The notes under the pieces: model-generated
The model's input: the letters and a program-made list of their open reading frames with translations, nothing else
Databases searched by the model: none
Told to the model about the DNA's origin: nothing
In this document: one piece after another, positions 2,809 through 59,622 of the stretch
Layout of the letters: the number at the start of each line of letters is the position of its first letter
Position numbering within the stretch: position 1 is the first letter of the stretch
Translations under genes and position numbers: made by a program
Assembly (NCBI GenBank): GCA_016931615.1
Contig: JAFGEL010000062.1
Coordinates: 25,837 to 89,836, forward strand
DNA length: 64,000 nucleotides
From: Desulfuromonadales bacterium
GTDB taxonomy: Bacteria > Desulfobacterota > Desulfuromonadia > Desulfuromonadales > Geopsychrobacteraceae
Reading direction: 5' to 3'

Positions 2809-3666
2809 ATGGTGAAGAAAATCGGTATATACGCCAAGAAAAATCATCCTGACGTTGAGCAGATTGCCATTGAAATCTGTGAGCGATTTCGTCGCGAGGG
2901 GATCGAGGTCCTGCTTGAAGACCGTCTGGCTGAATTGATCGGACAGATCAACGGCCATGCTGGTGAGGATATTCCTGAACAGGTTGATCTGATCATCGTT
3001 CTGGGCGGTGACGGGACCCTGATTTCGGTGGCCAGACAGGTTGGTGGGCTCAATGTTCCGATTGTCGGTGTCAACCTGGGTCGCCTGGGTTTTTTGACCG
3101 AAGTGACCCGTGACGAGTTACCACAGATGCTTGAAGTGCTGATATCCGGCGAATATCAGGTCTCCGATCGCATGATGCTGGACGCCGCGATCCTGCGTGA
3201 TGGTCAGGTCGTCGGCCAATATACCGTCTTGAACGATGTGGTTATCAACAAAGGGGCCTTGGCCCGGATTATCGACCTGGACACCTATGTCGACGGCCGG
3301 CTTTTAAGCAGCTACAAGGCCGACGGCCTCATCGTTGCCACCCCGACCGGGTCTACCGGCTATAACCTGGCGGCTGGTGGGCCGATTATTTATCCCGAAA
3401 TCAACAGTTTGATGATTTCTCCGATCTGTCCCCACATGCTGACCAATCGGCCTATTGTGCTCTGGAGCCGCTCAGTCATTGAAATCGATGTCAAGTTTGA
3501 AGATGATGTCGTCTTCTTTACCGCTGATGGTCAGGTCGGCCGCAAGTTGCTGCCCGGCGACCGCGTCCAGGTGCGTCGTTCCGAAGCGCGTACGCGTCTG
3601 GTGAACAGCCCGAGCAAAGATTATTTTGAAATTCTCAGGACCAAGCTGAGCTGGGGCGAAAGATAA
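2809..3666 (+). CDS. nadK: NAD+ kinase
   Basis: It has the GGDGTL motif (IIVLGGDGTLISVAR) and the NADK C-terminal motifs (DGLIVATPTGSTGYNLAAGGPI). Length is 285 aa. Confidence 0.9.
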   Translation: MVKKIGIYAKKNHPDVEQIAIEICERFRREGIEVLLEDRLAELIGQINGHAGEDIPEQVDLIIVLGGDGTLISVARQVGGLNVPIVGVNLGRLGFLTEVTRDELPQMLEVLISGEYQVSDRMMLDAAILRDGQVVGQYTVLNDVVINKGALARIIDLDTYVDGRLLSSYKADGLIVATPTGSTGYNLAAGGPIIYPEINSLMISPICPHMLTNRPIVLWSRSVIEIDVKFEDDVVFFTADGQVGRKLLPGDRVQVRRSEARTRLVNSPSKDYFEILRTKLSWGER

Positions 3667-25368: not shown

Positions 25369-26129
25369 TGAACCTTACATTGCATGTATGGCGCCAGAAG
25401 GGGCCACAGGATAAAGGAAAGCTGGTGACCTATCCGGCACCGAACGTCGACTCGGATATGTCATTTCTGGAAATGCTCGACGAAATCAATGACGAACTGA
25501 TCAGAAAAGGTGAAGATCCGATCGCCTTTGATCATGACTGCCGCGAAGGTATCTGCGGCATGTGTTCACAGGTCGTCAATGGCCGTCCTCACGGGCATCA
25601 GGAAAGAACCACGGTTTGTCAGCTGCATATGCGTCAATTCAATGATGGCGACGAGATCTTTGTTGAACCCTGGAGAGCGAAAGCTTTCCCGATTCAAAAA
25701 GACCTGATTGTTGACCGTTCATCCATGGACGTGATTATGCAGGCCGGTGGTTATGTCTCCTGCCACACCGGTGGTGTTCCGGACGGCAACACCTTCCCGA
25801 TTCCGAAGAAGGTTGCCGATTACGCTATGGACGCCGCCGAATGTATCGGTTGCGGCGCCTGTATTGCAGCCTGTCCGAACAGTTCGGCGATGCTCTTCAC
25901 CAGTGCCAAGGTTGCCCAACTCGCGGCATTGCCCCAGGGTAAACCTGAAGCCCGCAAGCGGGTTCAGGCTATGACCAAGGCTCTGCTGGATGAAGGTTTC
26001 GGTAACTGTACCAACCACTATGAATGCGAAGCGGCCTGTCCGAAAGGCATCAGCGTCAAATTCATTGCTAAGCTGAACCGTGAATATCTGAAGTCGATGA
26101 TTCCCAGTTCAACGGCTGAGCCGGTTTAG
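25368..26129 (+). CDS. sdhB: succinate dehydrogenase/fumarate reductase iron-sulfur subunit
   Basis: The 2Fe-2S motif is CREGICGMC. The 4Fe-4S/3Fe-4S motifs are [12 protein letters not shown] and [12 protein letters not shown]. The start overlaps the sdhA stop. Confidence 0.92.
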
Positions 26130-31643: not shown

Positions 31644-32183
31644 ATGAAAAGACTTAAAAAACTCTCATCGCTGGTTGTAATTGCTTTCAGCTTTTTCGTA
31701 TTGAGCGCCTGTAATAATTCGGAACAGCCGGCACAGCCACTTTCTCAGGGTGGGCTGATCGGTCAGCCGGCCCCCGATTTCAGCCTGACCGACATACACG
31801 GGAAGCAGGTGAGTTTGTCGCAATACAAGGGGCAGGTTGTCGTGCTGAATTTCTGGGCGACCTGGTGCCCACCGTGCCGCGAAGAGATGCCGTCCATGGA
31901 AAAGCTCCATCGTGATTACCAGGATAAGGGGCTGGTTATGCTGGCGGTGAATGTTGATAAAAATCCTCAACAGGCCGTGGCCGATTTCTTGCGCGAGCGA
32001 CCCTACAGCTTTAGCATTTTACTCGACAGCCAAAATGTGGCGCAAAACACCTACGGGGTTTTTCGTTTTCCGGAAAGTTTTATCATCGACCGTAACGGTA
32101 TCGTCGTGGAAAAGATCATTGGCGCCCGCGACTGGCTGACCGGACCGACCTTCAAGCTGATCGACTTTTTGATCAACGGTTAA
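31644..32183 (+). CDS. TlpA/ResA-like thiol:disulfide oxidoreductase lipoprotein
   Basis: It has a lipobox (FVLSAC) and a thioredoxin-fold active site ([14 protein letters not shown]). Length is 179 aa. Confidence 0.82.
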
Positions 32184-35778: not shown

Positions 35779-35858
35779 GCTTGTCATTGCCAATTGTTTT
35801 TCAGTTCAGATATACTGCTGCACTGTTTACTCAGTTACCCTATGTCAGGAGATGTCCC

Positions 35859-36954
35859 ATGTTTCGTGAGCCAAAGGAAAGTGTTAAGGAACTGCAGGAA
35901 AAGCTTCAGGAATTATGGAGGTATCTTTGACGTTCCGGGCAAGCAGGAGAGGGTTTCGGAACTTGAAGCCGAGATTGCCCGGCCCGATTTCTGGAATCAG
36001 GGGGAACAGGCCCAGGAAGCGCTGAAAGAGCGCACCCGGCTGCAAAAAGTTGTTGAAGACTGTAACTCGGCGCGCCGGCAGCTTGAAGATCTTCACGTCC
36101 TGATTGAACTGGGCGAAGAGGGTGAAGATGACGAGACCCTCGCCGAGGTCAATGCCATGCTTCCGGATCTGGAGAAGCAGATTGCCCGGATGGAATTTTC
36201 ACGCATGCTCTCCGGCGAACACGATGCCAGTAATGCGACAATCAGTATCAATGCCGGTGCCGGTGGAACAGAAGCCCAGGACTGGGCCGACATGATCCTG
36301 CGTATGTACACGCGTTACTGTGAGCGGAAAGGTTTCAAGCTCGAATTTACCGACTATCAGCCGGCCGAGGAAGCGGGGATCAAAAGTGCGACCTTCAGCG
36401 TCGAAGGTGACTACGCCTATGGTTATCTGCGTTCAGAAAGCGGGATCCATCGACTGGTGCGGATCTCCCCTTTTGACGCCAATGCGAAACGGCACACGTC
36501 ATTCTGTTCGGTGTTTGTTTTTCCCGAGTTGGACGATTCGATTGAGATTGAGATTGAAGATAAGGATATCAAGGTCGATACTTATCGGGCCAGCGGGGCC
36601 GGTGGCCAGCATGTTAACAAGACCGATTCAGCCATTCGCATCACTCATCTTCCCACCGGAATTGTCGTCGCCTGTCAGAATCAGCGTTCCCAGCACAGCA
36701 ATCGGGCCACCGCGCTGAAACAACTCAAAGCTCGGCTTTACGAGATGGAGATCCGTAAAAAGGAAGAAGAAGCAGCCGCTCTGTCTGAAGAAAAAAAGGA
36801 CATCGGTTGGGGCAGCCAGATCCGCTCCTATGTGCTTCATCCTTACCGCATGGTCAAGGATCACCGCACGGCATTTGAGACCGGCAATACCGATGCTGTT
36901 CTGGACGGCGATCTCGACGGATTTATTGAAGCCTACCTTCTTCAGGGCAAATAA
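35859..36954 (+). CDS. prfB: peptide chain release factor 2 with programmed +1 frameshift
   Basis: Frame 0 reads MFREPKESVKELQEKLQELWRYL and ends at the canonical slippery site CTT TGA C (35925-35931), preceded by the SD-like GGAGG. The +1 frame continues as DVPGKQERVSELEAEIARPDFWN. Later it carries the SPF and GGQ motifs (RISPFD, GAGGQHVNKTDSA). Confidence 0.93.
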
Positions 36955-49070: not shown

Positions 49071-50543
49071 TTACAAAATCGCTTTCATCCCCTGCATGAC
49101 GGAACGCAGTTCCTCACCGACTTCTTCGACCAGGGTGTTACGGATTTCGGCGTTGACGGCTACCAGGGTCTGGTTGTCAACTCCGTTGTCCTTGACATTG
49201 AGACCTTTGCCAATGACATCGGTATCGATATCAGCCATGAAATCTTTCAGCAGCGGAACAGCCGTATGCGCGAACAGGTAGCAACCGTACTCGGCGGTGT
49301 CGGAGATCACCTTGTTCATCTCATAGAGTTTTTTGCGGGCAATCAGGTTGGCGATCAGCGGCGTTTCGTGCAGCGATTCATAGTAGGCGGACTCAGGCTG
49401 CATGCCGGATTCGACCATGATGTCGAAGGCCAGCTCAACACCGGCTTTAACCATGGCAACCATCAGGATGCCGTTATCGAAATATTCCTGTTCGGGGATG
49501 TCGGCTGCCTGGGCGACAGCCTGCTCGAACGGTTCGTTGTTGGTGGCCTCACGCCAGCGCAGCAGGTCGGCATCGTCGTTGGCCCAGTCTTTCATCATGG
49601 TTTCGGAGAATTTACCGGACAGAATGTCGTCCATGTGGCGATGAAAGAGGGGTGTCATGATTTCTTTCAGTTCCTCGGCCAGATCGTAAGCGGCCAGTTT
49701 CGCCGGGTTGGAAAGGCGATCCATCATGTTGGTGATGCCACCATGTTTGAGCGCTTCGGTAACGGTTTCCCAGCCGTATTGAACCAGTTTGCAGGCGTAA
49801 CCGGAGTCGATACCGGCTTCGACCATCTTGTTGTAGAACAGAATCGAACCGGTCTGGAGTACGCCGCAGAGGATGGTCTGCTCACCCATGAGGTCCGATT
49901 TGACTTCGGCGGTGAAGGATGAAAAGAGCACTCCCGCACGATCTCCGCCGGTGCCGCAGCAGTAGGCCTTAGCGATGTCGAGACCGTCGCCGTTCGGATC
50001 GTTTTCCCCGTGAACGGCAATCAGGGTCGGCACACCGAAACCACGCAGGTATTCGGCGCGAACCTCTGATCCCGGTGATTTCGGAGCCACCATGATGACG
50101 GTCAGGTCATCACGGATCTGCATCCCTTCCTCAACGATGTTGAACCCGTGCGAGTAAGAGAGGCAGGCGCCTTTCTTCATCAGCGGCATCACGTGGTTGA
50201 CGATCGGTGTGTGGTACTTATCCGGCGTCAGGTTCAGAACCAGGTCGCCTTTAGGGACCATGTTCTCAATGGTGTCGAATTCAAAATTATTTTCCGTCGC
50301 GTTTTCCCAGGAAATATGCTTCTCGTCGATTTCGATCTTGCGCAAAGCATAAGAGACATCCAGACCGCTGTCGCGCAGGTTCAGCCCCTGGTTCAAGCCC
50401 TGTGCTCCGCAACCGACAATGACGATCTTTTTGCCCTTAAGGTACTCGACACCATTGAATTCGCTGCTGTCCATGAAGCGGCAGTTGCCGAGTTCCTCGA
50501 CCTGGCGACGAAAGGGTAGTGAGCTGAAATAATTTTGACCCAT
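49071..50543 (-). CDS. ilvC: ketol-acid reductoisomerase, long class II (enterobacterial type)
   Basis: The 490-aa protein shares long blocks with E. coli IlvC as I recall it. Examples are [54 protein letters not shown] and ISDTAEYG. Confidence 0.95.
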
Positions 50544-50684: not shown

Positions 50685-51572
50685 ATGGATATCAGGGAGC
50701 TCAAAATATTTTTAACCCTGGCCGAGCTGCTCCATTTTGGTCGCGCGAGTCGTGCCTGCCATCTCAGTTCTTCTGCGTTGACCCGCACCATTCAACGGCT
50801 TGAAGACGAGTTGGGACAGCCCCTGTTTGATCGGGATAACCGGAGCGTGCAGTTGACTGCAGCCGGTGTTCACTTTGTTAGTTATGCCCGCAGTGCCGTT
50901 CAAGAATTCGATAAATTCCGGACCAGTCTTTCCGCTGAGACTAAACTTTCCGGAAATTTGTCGATCTATGCCTCGATCACCGCTGTCTACAGTTTGCTGC
51001 CCGACCTTTTGGAAGCTTATCGTCATGCCCATGCCGGGGTCCAGCTGGAACTGCGAACCGGGGCGGCGGAAACAGCCGTGGCCCAGGTTGAAGAGGGGGT
51101 GATCGATATTGCCGTTGCAGCTCTGCCCGACAGAAAGAGTGCAAACATCAATTTTTTACCGATCATGCAGACGCCGTTGGTTTTTATCGCCGGGAAAAAA
51201 GTAAATCTGCATGCGCTGTGCGGTGCTGCCGCGTCGATCGATTGGGCCCGGGTGCCGCTGGTTTTACCGCAAAGTGGACTGTCGCGTCGGCGTTTGGATC
51301 AATGGCTGAAGAAAAAGCGAATTGTCCCGAATATCAGTTCCGAGGTCTCAGGGAATGAAGCGATTATTCCCATGGTTCACCTGGGTGGAGGAGTTGGGGT
51401 TGTGCCGCGGCTAGTTCTGGAGCGCAGTCCCTTTAAAGAGGATGTGAACGTGATTGCTGATGCGCCGCAACTTGAACCTTATGTTGTCGGACTCTGCTCC
51501 AGTCGGAAAACTTTGCATAAGCCCGCAGTTCACGCGTTCTGGGAGTTGGCCAAAGAACAAACGGGAGCCTAG
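50685..51572 (+). CDS. ilvY: LysR family transcriptional regulator, IlvY-like
   Basis: The N-terminal LysR HTH is MDIRELKIFLTLAELLHFGRASRACHLSSSALTRTIQRLEDELG. It is divergent from ilvC, as in enterobacteria. Length is 295 aa. Confidence 0.8.
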   Translation: MDIRELKIFLTLAELLHFGRASRACHLSSSALTRTIQRLEDELGQPLFDRDNRSVQLTAAGVHFVSYARSAVQEFDKFRTSLSAETKLSGNLSIYASITAVYSLLPDLLEAYRHAHAGVQLELRTGAAETAVAQVEEGVIDIAVAALPDRKSANINFLPIMQTPLVFIAGKKVNLHALCGAAASIDWARVPLVLPQSGLSRRRLDQWLKKKRIVPNISSEVSGNEAIIPMVHLGGGVGVVPRLVLERSPFKEDVNVIADAPQLEPYVVGLCSSRKTLHKPAVHAFWELAKEQTGA

Positions 51573-51802
51573 AATGCAGATAGTTGCTCCAGAATCGACC
51601 ATTCCGATGGGAACTGGCCGGTTGCTTTTTTCGAGTAGATCAGTTGCCCATCAACGACAATTTCAAAAACCCCTCCGGATGAGGGGATCAGTTCGGCATC
51701 GATTGAGAGCTGTTTTTTTATCTTGTCCGCCAGACTGGCGGCCCGTGGCCGGTAGCCTCAACTGTTGCAGTATTCGATAGTGATTTTCACTGGTATATCC
51801 AT
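51569..51802 (-). CDS. Rdx/SelW-like selenoprotein (77 aa) with in-frame UGA = Sec at codon 15
   Basis: My own minus-strand translation is MDIPVKITIEYCNS-U-GYRPRAASLADKIKKQLSIDAELIPSSGGVFEIVVDGQLIYSKKATGQFPSEWSILEQLSAF*. The CxxU redox motif after beta-1 and the G.FE(V/I)..DG.LI.SK...G.FP motif are hallmarks of the Rdx family (SelW/SelT/SelH). The ORF track stops at the TGA (51758-51760). Confidence 0.75.
51725..51743 (-). other. SECIS-like hairpin downstream of the selenocysteine UGA
   Basis: The RNA reads UGA-GGCUACCGGCCACGG-G-CCGCC-AGUCU-GGCGG-AC. This is a 5-bp GC stem with a G/U-containing apical loop. The stem starts 17 nt after the UGA, a spacing comparable to the E. coli fdhF SECIS as I recall it. 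Confidence 0.4.
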
Positions 51803-52074
51803 AATTTGAAGGTTCTGTAAGCGAAAAGCAGGTTTGCCACCAAGACACAAAGAACGCCAAGAAAAACACAGGCAAAAGCATTTTAAAGGAGAGTCGCTGA
51901 GGTGGAGAGAAATTCTCTTATATTGGTTTAAAACCAACAAAGCTTTAGATGTTGTTTGATTTTTCTCAGTGATCTCTGTGCACTCCGTGGTAAATGTTGT
52001 TGACCTAGAATTTCTTGGAGGGTCTTGGTAGCTACGTAGCCTATGTTCTGGTTATAGGTCCGGAATTTTACGGT

Positions 52075-52746
52075 TTAGCCGAACAGGTTGCCGGTTGTGT
52101 CGATCTGGTTCGACTTTGTCGCCACTGCTTCCTGGCGGATCATGGCATGGGCATTTTCACGATTCAACTTGCCGATTTTTTTCATCAGCTCAAATGTGAC
52201 ATGCTCGAACCCGAATTGTGATTTGAGGTCTTCCACCATCTTATTCCATAACGCCGCAGCTAATTCAGCATCCGCCATTGCCCGGTGAAATTGGTCGTCA
52301 ACCGGAATCCCCTTGTAACGCACCAGCGTCTCAAGTTTGTAGTTGATCACATCTGGATACAGGCGTTTGGCAACCTGCAGGGTGCAGGCAAAGTTCAGTG
52401 GCCGCTTTTTGCTGAAATTCCACAGTTCGGCTTCAAGAAATTTCTGGTCAAATGAAGCATTGTGCGCGACCAGAGGATGAGTGTCGAGAAACTTGACAAA
52501 TTTCTCCATAACTTCGGGTGCCGAAGGGGCTTCATTGAGCATCACGTTGGTAATACCGGTGATATTTTCGATCTCCCGGGAAATCCAGGAGCCGGGATTG
52601 ATCAGGCTTGAAAAACGTTCGACAATCTCGTTGCCACGTAGCAGGACCGCTCCGATTTCAATCACCCGATCCCCTTCATCTGGGTAAAGGCCGGTGGTTT
52701 CGAAGTCAAGGACGATGATGGATTCTGAAAAAATGTTTTCTCTCAT
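52075..52746 (-). CDS. DnaQ-like 3'-5' exonuclease (DNA polymerase III epsilon family) with C-terminal extension
   Basis: The Exo motifs are VLDFETTGL (ExoI), LVAHNASFDQKFL (ExoII) and HRAMADAE (ExoIII). Length is 223 aa. Confidence 0.85.
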   Translation of the reverse strand: MRENIFSESIIVLDFETTGLYPDEGDRVIEIGAVLLRGNEIVERFSSLINPGSWISREIENITGITNVMLNEAPSAPEVMEKFVKFLDTHPLVAHNASFDQKFLEAELWNFSKKRPLNFACTLQVAKRLYPDVINYKLETLVRYKGIPVDDQFHRAMADAELAAALWNKMVEDLKSQFGFEHVTFELMKKIGKLNRENAHAMIRQEAVATKSNQIDTTGNLFG

Positions 52747-56165: not shown

Positions 56166-56250
56166 ATCTACCGAAAGGGCAAAGCCGGGGTGACCCGGTG
56201 ACGCAAAGCCACGGGTCCAGTCCAGGGACAGCCGGGTTGCCGAAGAAGAT
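56166..56250 (+). ncRNA. GEMM-I (c-di-GMP-I class) riboswitch aptamer, copy 1
   Basis: The GEMM-I core is present: GGGCAAAG-CCGGG-GUGA(GNRA)-CCCGG-U-GACGCAAAGCC-ACGGG...CCGGGUUGCCGAAG. This matches the conserved GGGCAAA, GACGCAAAGCC and GGGUU(A/G)CCGA blocks of Vc2-type aptamers. Confidence 0.8.
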
Positions 56251-56409: not shown

Positions 56410-56490
56410 TCTCCGAAAGGGCAAAGCCGGGGTGACCCGGTGACGCAAAGCCACGGGTCCCATTCAGGGACAGCCGGGTTGCCGAAGAGA
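56410..56490 (+). ncRNA. GEMM-I (c-di-GMP-I class) riboswitch aptamer, copy 2
   Basis: It is near-identical to copy 1 over ~90 nt, differing in a few bases in the P3 loop and P1. The P1 pairing is preserved in both copies with a shifted register (ATCT/AGAT in copy 1, TCTC/GAGA in copy 2). Confidence 0.8.
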
Positions 56491-56601: not shown

Positions 56602-59600
56602 ATGAAAAGACACATTTGTTGGCAGCAGTTTTTATTGGCGATGGTTGTCGTGTTCTTTCCCTTGAACGTTTGTGCAAAGACAGTGACACTCTCCTGGGAC
56701 CCGAGTCCAAGCACGATCACCGGGTACAAAATCTACTATGCTGTGAATTCGTCCACTGTCCCCCTTGAAGGGACCGGGGCAACGGAAGGGGACTCGCCGA
56801 TTGATGTTGGGAATGTCCTCACCTTTACCATCAACGGGCTGTCTGACGCGGATGACCACTACTTTGCGGTCACGGCCACCGATGGAACCAACGAAAGTGT
56901 CTACTCCAACACAGTTCACAGCCCGCCGGTGACGAGCAGCAATAGCGCCCCGGAACTTTCTTCTATCGGGAACAAGTCTGTTCTGGAAAATGCCCTCCTT
57001 AATTTTACTGTAATAGCCAACGATGCTGATGGTGACGCTTTGACCTACGGTGTCGAAAATCTTCCGGATGGCGCCGGGTTCAATTCAACAACCGGACAAT
57101 TCAGCTGGACCCCGAATTTTACCCAATCGGGTCTTTATAATTTAGTTTTCAGTGTGACTGACGGCACCGCCAGCGATTCCGAGGCGATTCAGATTACCGT
57201 GACGGATGTTGTGAACAATCAGCCACCGGTATTGAATCCGATCGGGACTCAGACGATCGGTGAAGGGTCCCAGTTAATCTTTACCATTTCCGGCAGTGAC
57301 CCCGACGGTGATGCCTTGACCTACAGTGTGTCTGAACTCCCCGCGGGTTCATTCTTTAATCCGACGACCCGTCTGTTTAACTGGATTCCTGATTTTGACG
57401 ACTCAGTTAATACCAGGGTGTATCCCGTGACCTTTACGGTCAGTGATGGGCTTGCTCAGGATTCGGAAACCGTCACGATCAATGTGACTCATGTCAATCG
57501 TGCTCCGACGCTTGAGGCGATCGGGTCACAATCAATGACTGAATGGGACAGTTTCAACCTTGTTGTCAGCGGGTCGGATCCGGATAACGATGCCTTGACG
57601 TACAGTGCGACCGGGCTACCCGAAGGGGCTGTTTTTACTCCCTCAACCCGGTCATTCAGCTGGATTCCGGACATCAATCAGGCCGGAATCTATCAGGTTG
57701 TCTTCAGTGTCACTGACGGGCTACTGAGTGCTACGGAGACAGTCACCATGACTGTTCTCAATGCCAACGAAGCACCGGTTCTTGCCCCTGTCGGCAGTCA
57801 GTCCGTCAGCGAGGGGGAACTGCTGTCATTTGCTCTTTCGGCAACTGATGTCAACGGTGATCCTCTCAGTTACAATGCCACCGAACTGCCGTCTGGGGCA
57901 GCTTTCGACAATGCCACTCAACGCTTCAGCTGGACGCCTGACTATGATCAAGCCGGAAATTTTACTGTCGAATTCAATGTGAGTGACGGCACTCTAAGTG
58001 ATTCCGAAAGTGTTTCAATAACCGTCAGCAATACAAACAGGCCGCCCACGATCAGCGGTTCTGCGGTCAGCTCGGTGATGGCCACAACTGCTTACCAGTT
58101 TGTTCCCACGGCCGGGGATCCTGATGGCGACAGCCTGACATTCAGCATCGAAAATAAGCCGTCATGGGCAGTGTTTGATGCTGACAGCGGGGCTTTGTCC
58201 GGTACTCCGGATATGGGCCAGACGGGGACTTATCCCGGAATTACCATCACCGTATCCGACGCTGCTGCAGCGACATCATTGCCGGCCTTTGCCATCGAAG
58301 TGACCGCCTATGTTGCTCAGGATTCAGATGGGGACGGAGTTCTTGATCATCTTGATGCTTTCCCGGACGATCCCGCGGAATGGGAGGATACCGACGGAGA
58401 TCAACTCGGGAACAATGCGGACCCTGATGATGACAATGACGGGGTCGCCGATATTCGCGACGGGTTTCCTCTTGATAACAGCAGGGCTGGTTGGGTCATC
58501 ACGGCCACGGCAGGGACCGGTGGGTACATCAACCCCGACGGAGAAACAACTGTTCTCTACGGTGGTTCACAGGCCTATGAACTGACGCCTCTGGCCGGTT
58601 ACTACATGAATGATCTGCTGGTTGACGGGGTATCGGTCGGTCTGATGGAACAGTATGAATTTATCAACATTGATGATCATCATCAGATCGAAGGCGTTTT
58701 TGCACCAATCCCGACCGGGCTCAGTTATGACCCGCTGTCTATCGGATTGATCGGGGTTGATCGGGTTGACGGTGGTGATGACGCTAACAATCTGGTTGAC
58801 AATAAACCGAAGCAGGACCTCGATTATCGCTTCACTATCGTCCTGCGTGATTCAGCACCCGCTGATCAACGGCGTGTCTACCTGGTTCTGAACAGCTATA
58901 AATATCAGCTGCAGTTGGAAAACGGCGCTTTGAGTACTGGTGCTGAATATGCGCTTTCCACCCGTTTAGGTCCGGCTCACTCCCACCAGTTCCATTTTGT
59001 TGCCGAAGATCTTTCCGGAACGCAACTCTGGCGTTATCCGGCAAGCGGAGATCTGCCCGGGCCGATTGTCGAACTTTTAGACGGCAGAAACGTCATCGGT
59101 ATGGTTGCCGATATCAATGCCTACGGCCTGGATGCTCTGGAAGCCTTTGAAGACAAGATCGTTTACCGCTGGATTGCCGATTCGGGCCCGAACGGCTCAT
59201 TCAAACTGGCTGATACCGGTGCGCCTATCGCTTCGGGAGAAGGTTATGTCTTGAAGAAGGCAGTCGGAGGAACACTGCCGGACAGAGCGCTCTATGGAGA
59301 AATTACAGAGGCTGAGCACGAGATACAGCTGAACACCGGTTGGAACCTGATCAGTAACCCTTACGGCGGCAGAGTTGACCTCAGAGATGTCGGTGTGCGC
59401 GTCGGAGCTGCTGCTCCGCAGGGTTGGCTCGATGCCGTGGCAAGGAATCTTGTGGTTGATGCTGTCTACTCATACCTGGGGGAGGATTGGGGTGATACCA
59501 ACGAATTTGCCAGCGCCGGTGGAAGCGCTTCGGCCTACCTGATCCCGTGGATCGGTTATTGGATATATGTCAATCCCAATGAAGAGCCGGTTTCACTGGT

Positions 59601-59622
59601 GATTCCGAAGCCTTTGCAGTGA
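56602..59622 (+). CDS. large secreted surface protein: FN3-like domain, 5 cadherin-like/Ig-like repeats, thrombospondin type-3 Ca-binding repeats, C-terminal beta-rich region
   Basis: A signal peptide is present (MKRHICWQQFLLAMVVVFFPLNVCA). The FN3-like segment is VTLSWDPSPSTITGYKIYY. Five ~95-aa repeats show N.AP.L..IG.Q...E...L.F.....D.DGD.LTY....LP.GA.F......FSWTPD..Q.G.Y.V.F.V.DG. The TSP3 segment is DSDGDGVLDHLDAFPDDPAEWEDTDGDQLGNNADPDDDNDGVAD. The ATG at 56602 has a GAAAGGAAATCGGGGG RBS region. The track start at 56440 lies inside the riboswitch. Confidence 0.82.
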   Translation: MKRHICWQQFLLAMVVVFFPLNVCAKTVTLSWDPSPSTITGYKIYYAVNSSTVPLEGTGATEGDSPIDVGNVLTFTINGLSDADDHYFAVTATDGTNESVYSNTVHSPPVTSSNSAPELSSIGNKSVLENALLNFTVIANDADGDALTYGVENLPDGAGFNSTTGQFSWTPNFTQSGLYNLVFSVTDGTASDSEAIQITVTDVVNNQPPVLNPIGTQTIGEGSQLIFTISGSDPDGDALTYSVSELPAGSFFNPTTRLFNWIPDFDDSVNTRVYPVTFTVSDGLAQDSETVTINVTHVNRAPTLEAIGSQSMTEWDSFNLVVSGSDPDNDALTYSATGLPEGAVFTPSTRSFSWIPDINQAGIYQVVFSVTDGLLSATETVTMTVLNANEAPVLAPVGSQSVSEGELLSFALSATDVNGDPLSYNATELPSGAAFDNATQRFSWTPDYDQAGNFTVEFNVSDGTLSDSESVSITVSNTNRPPTISGSAVSSVMATTAYQFVPTAGDPDGDSLTFSIENKPSWAVFDADSGALSGTPDMGQTGTYPGITITVSDAAAATSLPAFAIEVTAYVAQDSDGDGVLDHLDAFPDDPAEWEDTDGDQLGNNADPDDDNDGVADIRDGFPLDNSRAGWVITATAGTGGYINPDGETTVLYGGSQAYELTPLAGYYMNDLLVDGVSVGLMEQYEFINIDDHHQIEGVFAPIPTGLSYDPLSIGLIGVDRVDGGDDANNLVDNKPKQDLDYRFTIVLRDSAPADQRRVYLVLNSYKYQLQLENGALSTGAEYALSTRLGPAHSHQFHFVAEDLSGTQLWRYPASGDLPGPIVELLDGRNVIGMVADINAYGLDALEAFEDKIVYRWIADSGPNGSFKLADTGAPIASGEGYVLKKAVGGTLPDRALYGEITEAEHEIQLNTGWNLISNPYGGRVDLRDVGVRVGAAAPQGWLDAVARNLVVDAVYSYLGEDWGDTNEFASAGGSASAYLIPWIGYWIYVNPNEEPVSLVIPKPLQ
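56941..58310 (+). repeat. five tandem ~285-bp coding repeats (cadherin-like modules) inside the surface protein gene
   Basis: The repeats are recognisable at the protein level (NSAPEL.., NNQPPVL.., NRAPTL.., NEAPVL.., NRPPTI..). They have diverged at the DNA level. Confidence 0.7.

Follow-up and report, generated by a model that had tools for sequence, protein, structure and literature searches.

An Rdx-family frame with an in-frame UGA

The window analyzed here is a 64,000-nucleotide (nt) stretch of a Desulfuromonadales bacterium (contig JAFGEL010000062.1 of assembly GCA_016931615.1, forward-strand positions 25,837 to 89,836). GenBank record JAFGVQ010000004.1 (GCA_016937895.1), a Desulfuromonadales metagenome-assembled genome, is identical to it, window position 1 corresponding approximately to record position 113157. 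On the minus strand of the window lies a small gene of the SelW-like (Rdx) family, a candidate selenoprotein gene with an in-frame UGA in its redox motif and a hairpin of the bacterial selenocysteine insertion sequence (SECIS) type behind it (Table 1).

Translation of the minus strand from 51802 to 51569 yields MDIPVKITIEYCNS*GYRPRAASLADKIKKQLSIDAELIPSSGGVFEIVVDGQLIYSKKATGQFPSEWSILEQLSAF*, that is, 77 codons and a stop, with one internal TGA at 51758-51760. The terminal TAG (51569-51571) overlaps the TAG (51570-51572) of a convergent, ilvY-like gene for a LysR-type regulator, the overlap reading CTAG on the plus strand. A mechanical list of open reading frames (ORFs) contains at this locus only a 60-amino-acid (aa) ORF ending at the TGA (51758-51940) and a 72-aa out-of-frame ORF (51663-51881). 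All sequence statements made in a preliminary description of the locus, which had pointed to the single frame with one in-frame TGA, the overlapping stops and the two uninformative ORFs, check out.

The longest reading, from ATG 51802 to the TAG, is 77 aa long including selenocysteine (Sec), and the reading from GTG 51790 is 73 aa long (MKITIEYCNSUGYRPRAASLADKIKKQLSIDAELIPSSGGVFEIVVDGQLIYSKKATGQFPSEWSILEQLSAF); the protein is intact from either start. In the orthologs the start is always ATG or GTG, seven codons 5' of the Cys of the motif and preceded by an AAGGA Shine-Dalgarno sequence. The codon of the window gene matching this start is GTG 51790, and ATG 51802 falls at the position of the orthologs' Shine-Dalgarno sequence; therefore, judged by this comparison, the true start is probably GTG 51790 (73 aa) rather than ATG 51802 (77 aa). 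The preliminary description had placed the start at ATG 51802.

Table 1. Features at and around the Rdx-family locus (window coordinates).
Feature	Coordinates	Strand	Basis and remarks
SelW-like / Rdx-family candidate selenoprotein gene	51569..51802	-	Translation; family profiles; PDB sequence matches; start-codon comparison
CxxU redox motif TGC-AAC-AGT-TGA (Cys-Asn-Ser-Sec)	51758..51769	-	Sequence; predicted Sec codon UGA 51758-51760
Bacterial SECIS hairpin within the coding sequence (CDS)	51727..51741	-	Folding; bacterial SECIS (bSECIS) criteria; covariation
GenBank CDS, 54-aa 'Rdx family protein' (P0002)	51569..51733	-	Gene 3001-3165 of locus L001, which is identical to the window
DEDDh (DnaQ/RNase T-like) 3'-5' exonuclease gene	52075..52746	-	NCBIfam and Pfam RNase_T matches; adjoins the candidate selenoprotein gene upstream
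LysR-type regulator gene (ilvY-like), convergent	50685..51572	+	ORF list; Pfam HTH_1 and LysR_substrate
ilvC, divergent from the ilvY-like regulator gene	49071-50543		Pfam KARI match

Family assignment and redox motif

Profile searches of the protein were run with U replaced by C. The full protein scores 75.1 bits against Pfam Rdx (PF10262; curated cutoff 22.6), 67.3 bits against TIGR02174 CXXU_selWTH (cutoff 34.2) and 92.3 bits against the NCBIfam equivalog NF041051, 'SelT/SelW/SelH family (seleno)protein' (cutoff 88). The 62 residues 3' of the TGA taken alone score 49.5 bits against Rdx (E=5e-13), and hence the sequence on either side of the TGA is of the Rdx family, as had been proposed before; the 15 residues up to and including the TGA position add 25 bits. 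With such scores, chance does not account for the frame.

A sequence search of PDB returned only Rdx-fold proteins, including 2fa8 (Atu0228), 2ljk (MIEN1) and 2npb (SelW). The CxxU motif is aligned to the CxxC of 2fa8 (yCnsCgy / yCtqCnw) and of 2ljk, and the TGA occupies the position of the second Cys, in agreement with the earlier assignment of the TGA to the second redox position. The motif, C12-N-S-U15, lies near the N-terminus, just behind the first beta strand, and its Cys is invariant in an alignment of 13 ortholog sequences. Homology to the solved Rdx structures, with E-values down to 8e-11, suggests a thioredoxin-like alpha/beta fold.

Conservation of the TGA codon among orthologs

The codon at the CxxU position was extracted from 160 related loci fetched by tblastn, of which 80 belong to named genomes and the other 80 to metagenomes; as the query had Cys at this position, TGA was not favored by the selection. 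The codon is TGA in the window gene and in all 153 related loci that match the family motif (153/153), with no Cys codons; the single TGC match is an unrelated motif elsewhere in locus L070. The TGA-bearing loci span Desulfuromonadales (Desulfuromusa kysingii, Pelovirga terrestris, Malonomonas), Acidobacteriota, Calditrichota, Peptococcaceae and Chloroflexi, and come also from SAR324, KSB1, Zixibacteria and others.

The window frame is 80% identical to its nearest relative. The 14 codons 5' of the TGA, among them that of the partner Cys and those of the first beta strand, are conserved, and the TGA and the coding sequence downstream of it are kept across the orthologs as well.

The hairpin downstream of the UGA

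The GC-rich hairpin with an AGUCU loop noticed in the preliminary description is confirmed: it consists of a 5' arm CCGCC (51741-51737), the loop AGUCU (51736-51732) and a 3' arm GGCGG (51731-51727), it is separated from the UGA by 16 nt, starting with the 17th, and it encodes the A-A-S-L-A segment of the protein. According to published bSECIS criteria, an apical loop of 3-9 nt is carried by a stem of 4-16 bp, the distance between the UGA and the loop is 16-37 nt, the minimum free energy is at most -7.5 kcal/mol, and G stands at loop position 1 or 2, as a rule within the pattern N1-G-[G/U]-N-N2 (PMC13188914); a G conserved at a distance of about 20 nt from the UGA has been described in bacterial SECIS elements (PMC4605307). 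The window hairpin agrees with four of four criteria, having a stem of 5-6 bp, G at loop position 2, a spacing of 21-22 nt and an energy of -9.9 kcal/mol for the 18-nt hairpin core; the 45 nt 3' of the UGA fold at -14.6 kcal/mol. Among the orthologs, the loop and stem sizes and the spacing agree with the criteria in 139 of 139 sequences, the G rule is observed in 138 of 139, and in 103 of 139 the minimal 18-nt hairpin is stable enough for the energy rule.

Covariation was assessed in a gap-free alignment of 48 nt from the UGA onward, comprising 139 distinct sequences. Pairing is seen in 90.2% of the cells of the proposed stem. Double-sided changes were counted in 79 cells compared to 18.5±3.5 in column shuffles, none of 500 shuffles reaching 79, and sliding the 3' arm by 1-3 columns left just 3-32 such cells; the covariation score is 0.361 versus 0.141 in shuffles. 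RNAalifold, run independently, recovers the identical stem. Loop positions G26 and U27 are conserved in more than 90% of the sequences, as expected for a contact with SelB.

Some of the compensatory changes alter the protein: the segment encoded by the hairpin reads A-A-S-L-A, A-V-S-L-A, A-S-S-L-G, A-S-S-L-E or A-L-S-L-R. Therefore, pairing is kept at the protein's cost, and conservation of the protein alone does not explain it. The published criteria and the covariation together support the earlier view of this hairpin as a bacterial SECIS element.

Another hairpin, terminator-like in that CCCCTCATCCGGAGGGG is followed by TTTTT, lies within the same CDS (51670-51686, minus strand), across the conserved PSSGGVFE motif. 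There are two terminator-like sites in the region versus 1.6 expected, and this one is probably due to chance.

Selenocysteine decoding and its alternatives

In four metagenomic relatives (L144, 1521-2076; L145, 918-1269; L155, 1521-2868; L157, 1527-2936) the Rdx gene with TGA is directly followed, within about 60 nt, by a tRNA-Sec gene (anticodon tca). In L144, L155 and L157 the tRNA gene is in turn followed by selD, with about 59-62% identity to the SelD probe, whereas L145 ends at the tRNA. The SelD and SelB tblastn probes, both approximate E. coli sequences, were run against all fetched loci: SelD matched only in these three, and the SelB probe gave no match. SelW-like CxxU selenoproteins have been listed for Geobacter sulfurreducens and Desulfotalea, and selenoproteins are present in Geobacter spp. 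and Desulfuromonas acetoxidans (PMC1794560); hence, members of Desulfuromonadales decode Sec.

Taken with the family assignment, the TGA of the orthologs, the bSECIS criteria and the covariation, we conclude with high confidence that the locus is a SelW-like (Rdx) selenoprotein gene whose UGA is decoded as selenocysteine by means of the SECIS hairpin, as the preliminary description had suggested. Insertion of Sec at UGA 51758-51760 is inferred from these data. In the corresponding mechanism, the UGA would not be read as a stop during translation; the mRNA hairpin at 51727-51741 would act as a bacterial SECIS element, bound by SelB·GTP·Sec-tRNA(Sec) as the ribosome arrives at the UGA; and SelB would deliver selenocysteine to the A site, after which 62 further codons would be translated up to the TAG at 51569. 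The predicted product is a small (73-77 aa) thioredoxin-fold redox protein with the active site Cys12-x-x-Sec15. From what is known of the family, the mature protein may cycle between selenolate/thiol and selenenylsulfide forms at this center, reducing a partner.

Several observations weigh against this interpretation. The genes selA, selB, selD and tRNA-Sec were not found in the 64-kb window and about 9 kb of contig beyond each end; this search covered about 82 kb of the contig and is uninformative on the genome as a whole. No tRNA gene is present in the window, and there is no sel gene among the 40 window ORFs annotated with NCBIfam. A second selenoprotein candidate was not found in the window either, as both the long frames interrupted by TGA and a scan for CxxU/UxxC motifs with bSECIS-like hairpins gave just shadows of known genes. 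The good Shine-Dalgarno sequence of the orthologs is absent from the window gene, so that its ribosome-binding site looks weaker. The spacer between the exonuclease gene and the candidate selenoprotein gene (51803-52074, minus strand) is 272 nt long, which is unusual compared to the median of about 40 nt in the related loci; no repeat was found for it in the window or in the loci, its minus strand has no promoter-like site, and its sequence is unique. Finally, no Rfam SECIS family was matched, either in the whole window at the gathering score or in 51560-51830 at E<=10, where the scan gave only a chance DUF2800 match (E=2.1). To our knowledge, Rfam has no model for the SelW-like type of bacterial SECIS; a missing match is to be expected for such short, family-specific elements and does not count against function.

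An alternative explanation is that the UGA is read through without Sec: a near-cognate tRNA would insert Trp or Cys, or the Sec machinery would have been lost with little or no full-length protein being made, and the hairpin would slow the ribosome or be a relic. Such a scenario would be consistent with the lack of Sec machinery in about 82 kb of contig and with the weaker local ribosome-binding site. However, the hairpin fits the SelB-binding consensus, the near-invariant G-U of the loop included, and compensatory substitutions preserve its arms across phyla; in relatives the gene stands next to tRNA-Sec and selD; and selenoproteins are documented in Desulfuromonadales (PMC1794560). Moreover, a lineage losing Sec would be expected to turn TGA to TGC or TGT or to drop the gene, whereas here the frame is intact and 80% identical to that of the nearest relative. 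We therefore consider read-through of this kind very unlikely.

Still less probable is that the TGA is a genuine stop, the gene being a pseudogene with a nonsense mutation or the real product being a C-terminal fragment. Stop-to-stop ORF calling indeed yields no full-length ORF, and the GenBank record annotates exactly such a fragment, the 54-aa CDS of Table 1. But this CDS starts at a CTG inside the loop of the SECIS hairpin, without a ribosome-binding site, and its product would be missing both the first strand and the active site, while the orthologs have a Shine-Dalgarno sequence and ATG or GTG seven codons before the Cys. The 54-aa CDS is an annotation artefact and not a real product; truncated annotation of bacterial selenoproteins is a recognized systematic error (PMC13326102). 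A nonsense mutation is ruled out by the TGA being universal in the orthologs, since nonsense mutations arising independently could not have given an identical TGA in all 153 related loci, and by the conservation of the ribosome-binding site and of the 14 upstream codons, which include that of the partner Cys, encode the first beta strand and contribute to the family score.

Database entries of the nearest full-length homologs have the motif as C-N-Q-W-G: P0001, P0003-P0012 and P0015 are stored with Trp at the Sec position. For P0001 (L002, 785-1006), the only Trp homolog examined at the DNA level, an in-frame TGA underlies the W, and the contig of a truncated homolog, P0016, has TGA at the motif codon as well (L003). 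A genome-wide reassignment of UGA to Trp or Gly (code 4 or 25), under which the W of P0001 and P0003-P0012 would be real, can be dismissed as hardly conceivable and is ruled out by the use of TGA as a stop in the window, where TGA terminates 20 of the 45 long ORFs, family matches showing most of these to be real genes, and where release factor 2 (prfB), which recognizes UGA, is present with a UGA-dependent frameshift site, CTTTGAC; the homologs, moreover, come from many phyla using the standard code, and the W proteins are encoded on short contigs, about 0.5-1.3 kb in length, on which gene callers may have picked an alternative genetic code to bridge the TGA.

The prfB gene itself (TIGR00020, 539 bits) lies at about 35858-36954 on the plus strand, with the programmed +1 frameshift site CTT-TGA-C at 35925, which is why the TTG start listed for this ORF at 35794 is an artefact. 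With this frameshift, UGA is recoded a second time in the window, in a way unrelated to the selenoprotein gene. The window also contains a gene for a ResA/TlpA-like thiol:disulfide oxidoreductase (31644-32183, plus strand), which is of the Cys form and not a selenoprotein; its product scores 70 bits against the WAxxUGC selenoprotein family NF041054, below the cutoff of 300.

Gene neighborhood

The DEDDh exonuclease gene is directly upstream of the selenoprotein gene, on the same strand, in all 22 loci of the Desulfuromonadales clade (22/22), with a median gap of 40 nt. The exonuclease is thus a possible operon partner: the adjacency suggests an operon, perhaps with redox control of the exonuclease. 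Downstream, the ilvY-like regulator gene is found in convergent orientation in 18 loci and ilvC in 13. In other clades the neighbors are genes for an SDR, a DtxR-like regulator and an HD-domain protein, and no partner is universal.

The linkage, in another clade, to tRNA-Sec in four loci and to selD in three hints at a role in selenium trafficking or in supplying selenophosphate synthetase. We know of no description of a link between a SelW-like gene and either the exonuclease or tRNA-Sec/selD. Judging from gene order only, the SelW-like protein could, instead of acting as a generic antioxidant, work with a partner specific to its lineage or take part in selenium handling, a proposal that we regard as unlikely.

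Elsewhere in the window, an Rfam scan of its whole length found two variant c-di-GMP-I aptamers in tandem, both above the gathering score: RF03167 c-di-GMP-I-GGC at 56169-56245 (plus strand, 63.8 bits) and RF03168 c-di-GMP-I-UAU at 56411-56487 (plus strand, 72.5 bits). These riboswitches are located about 115 nt upstream of a gene encoding a 1006-aa He_PIG/Big_9 repeat protein (GenBank CDS 56602-59622). Two different c-di-GMP-I variants with altered specificity in tandem may merit separate attention.

Comparison with known systems

Bacterial SelW-like CxxU selenoproteins with a SECIS element in the coding region were described in 2004-2006 (PMC1088965, PMC1794560), and few or no Cys homologs are known for them (PMC1794560). 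The window gene resembles those of G. sulfurreducens, Desulfotalea psychrophila and the Sargasso Sea/GOS data in its size of about 73 aa, the N-terminal CxxU, the in-frame UGA, a SECIS element that lies in the coding region and has G in its small apical loop, the dominance of the Sec form over Cys forms, and scores above the family cutoffs. Nothing of substance differs; the window copy has the 54-aa stub annotation and the 272-nt spacer.

By sequence, mammalian selenoprotein W (2npb, E=5e-6) and MIEN1/C17orf37 (2ljk, E=2e-10) belong to the same Rdx family and likewise have CxxU or CxxC near the N-terminus. Eukaryotic SelW depends on a SECIS element in the 3' untranslated region and on SBP2/eEFSec, whereas in the window gene the SECIS element lies within the ORF right after the UGA, as in the bacterial SelB mechanism (PMC1088965, PMC4605307). 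The best match with a solved structure is Agrobacterium Atu0228 (2fa8; E=8e-11); the alignment covers residues 5-70 and brings the redox motifs into register. This protein and the other Cys-type bacterial Rdx proteins (2obk, 2oka, 2p0g) carry CxxC in place of CxxU and are longer, at about 105 aa; R-A-G-W-M-A in them corresponds to the hairpin-encoded R-A-A-S-L-A of the window family.

Compared with the SECIS element of the E. coli fdhF type and the bSECIS consensus, the window element is alike in being a stem-loop 3' of the UGA with G and then U in the loop about 20 nt away (PMC13188914, PMC4605307). In contrast to the fdhF type, its stem is shorter and minimal (5-6 bp), its sequence is family-specific, and it matches no Rfam model.

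In summary, the gene is an ordinary member of the already known bacterial SelW-like family and opens no new biological question. Its practical value lies in annotation, as record JAFGVQ010000004.1 carries a truncated CDS without the active site, and the storage of Trp at the Sec position in database homologs could mislead surveys of Sec and Cys forms. The truncated CDS and the stored Trp are both instances of the systematic mis-annotation already recognized for bacterial selenoproteins (PMC13326102). The locus is also a clean illustration of how a SECIS element in a coding region constrains the protein sequence, the A-A-S-L-A segment covarying as RNA.

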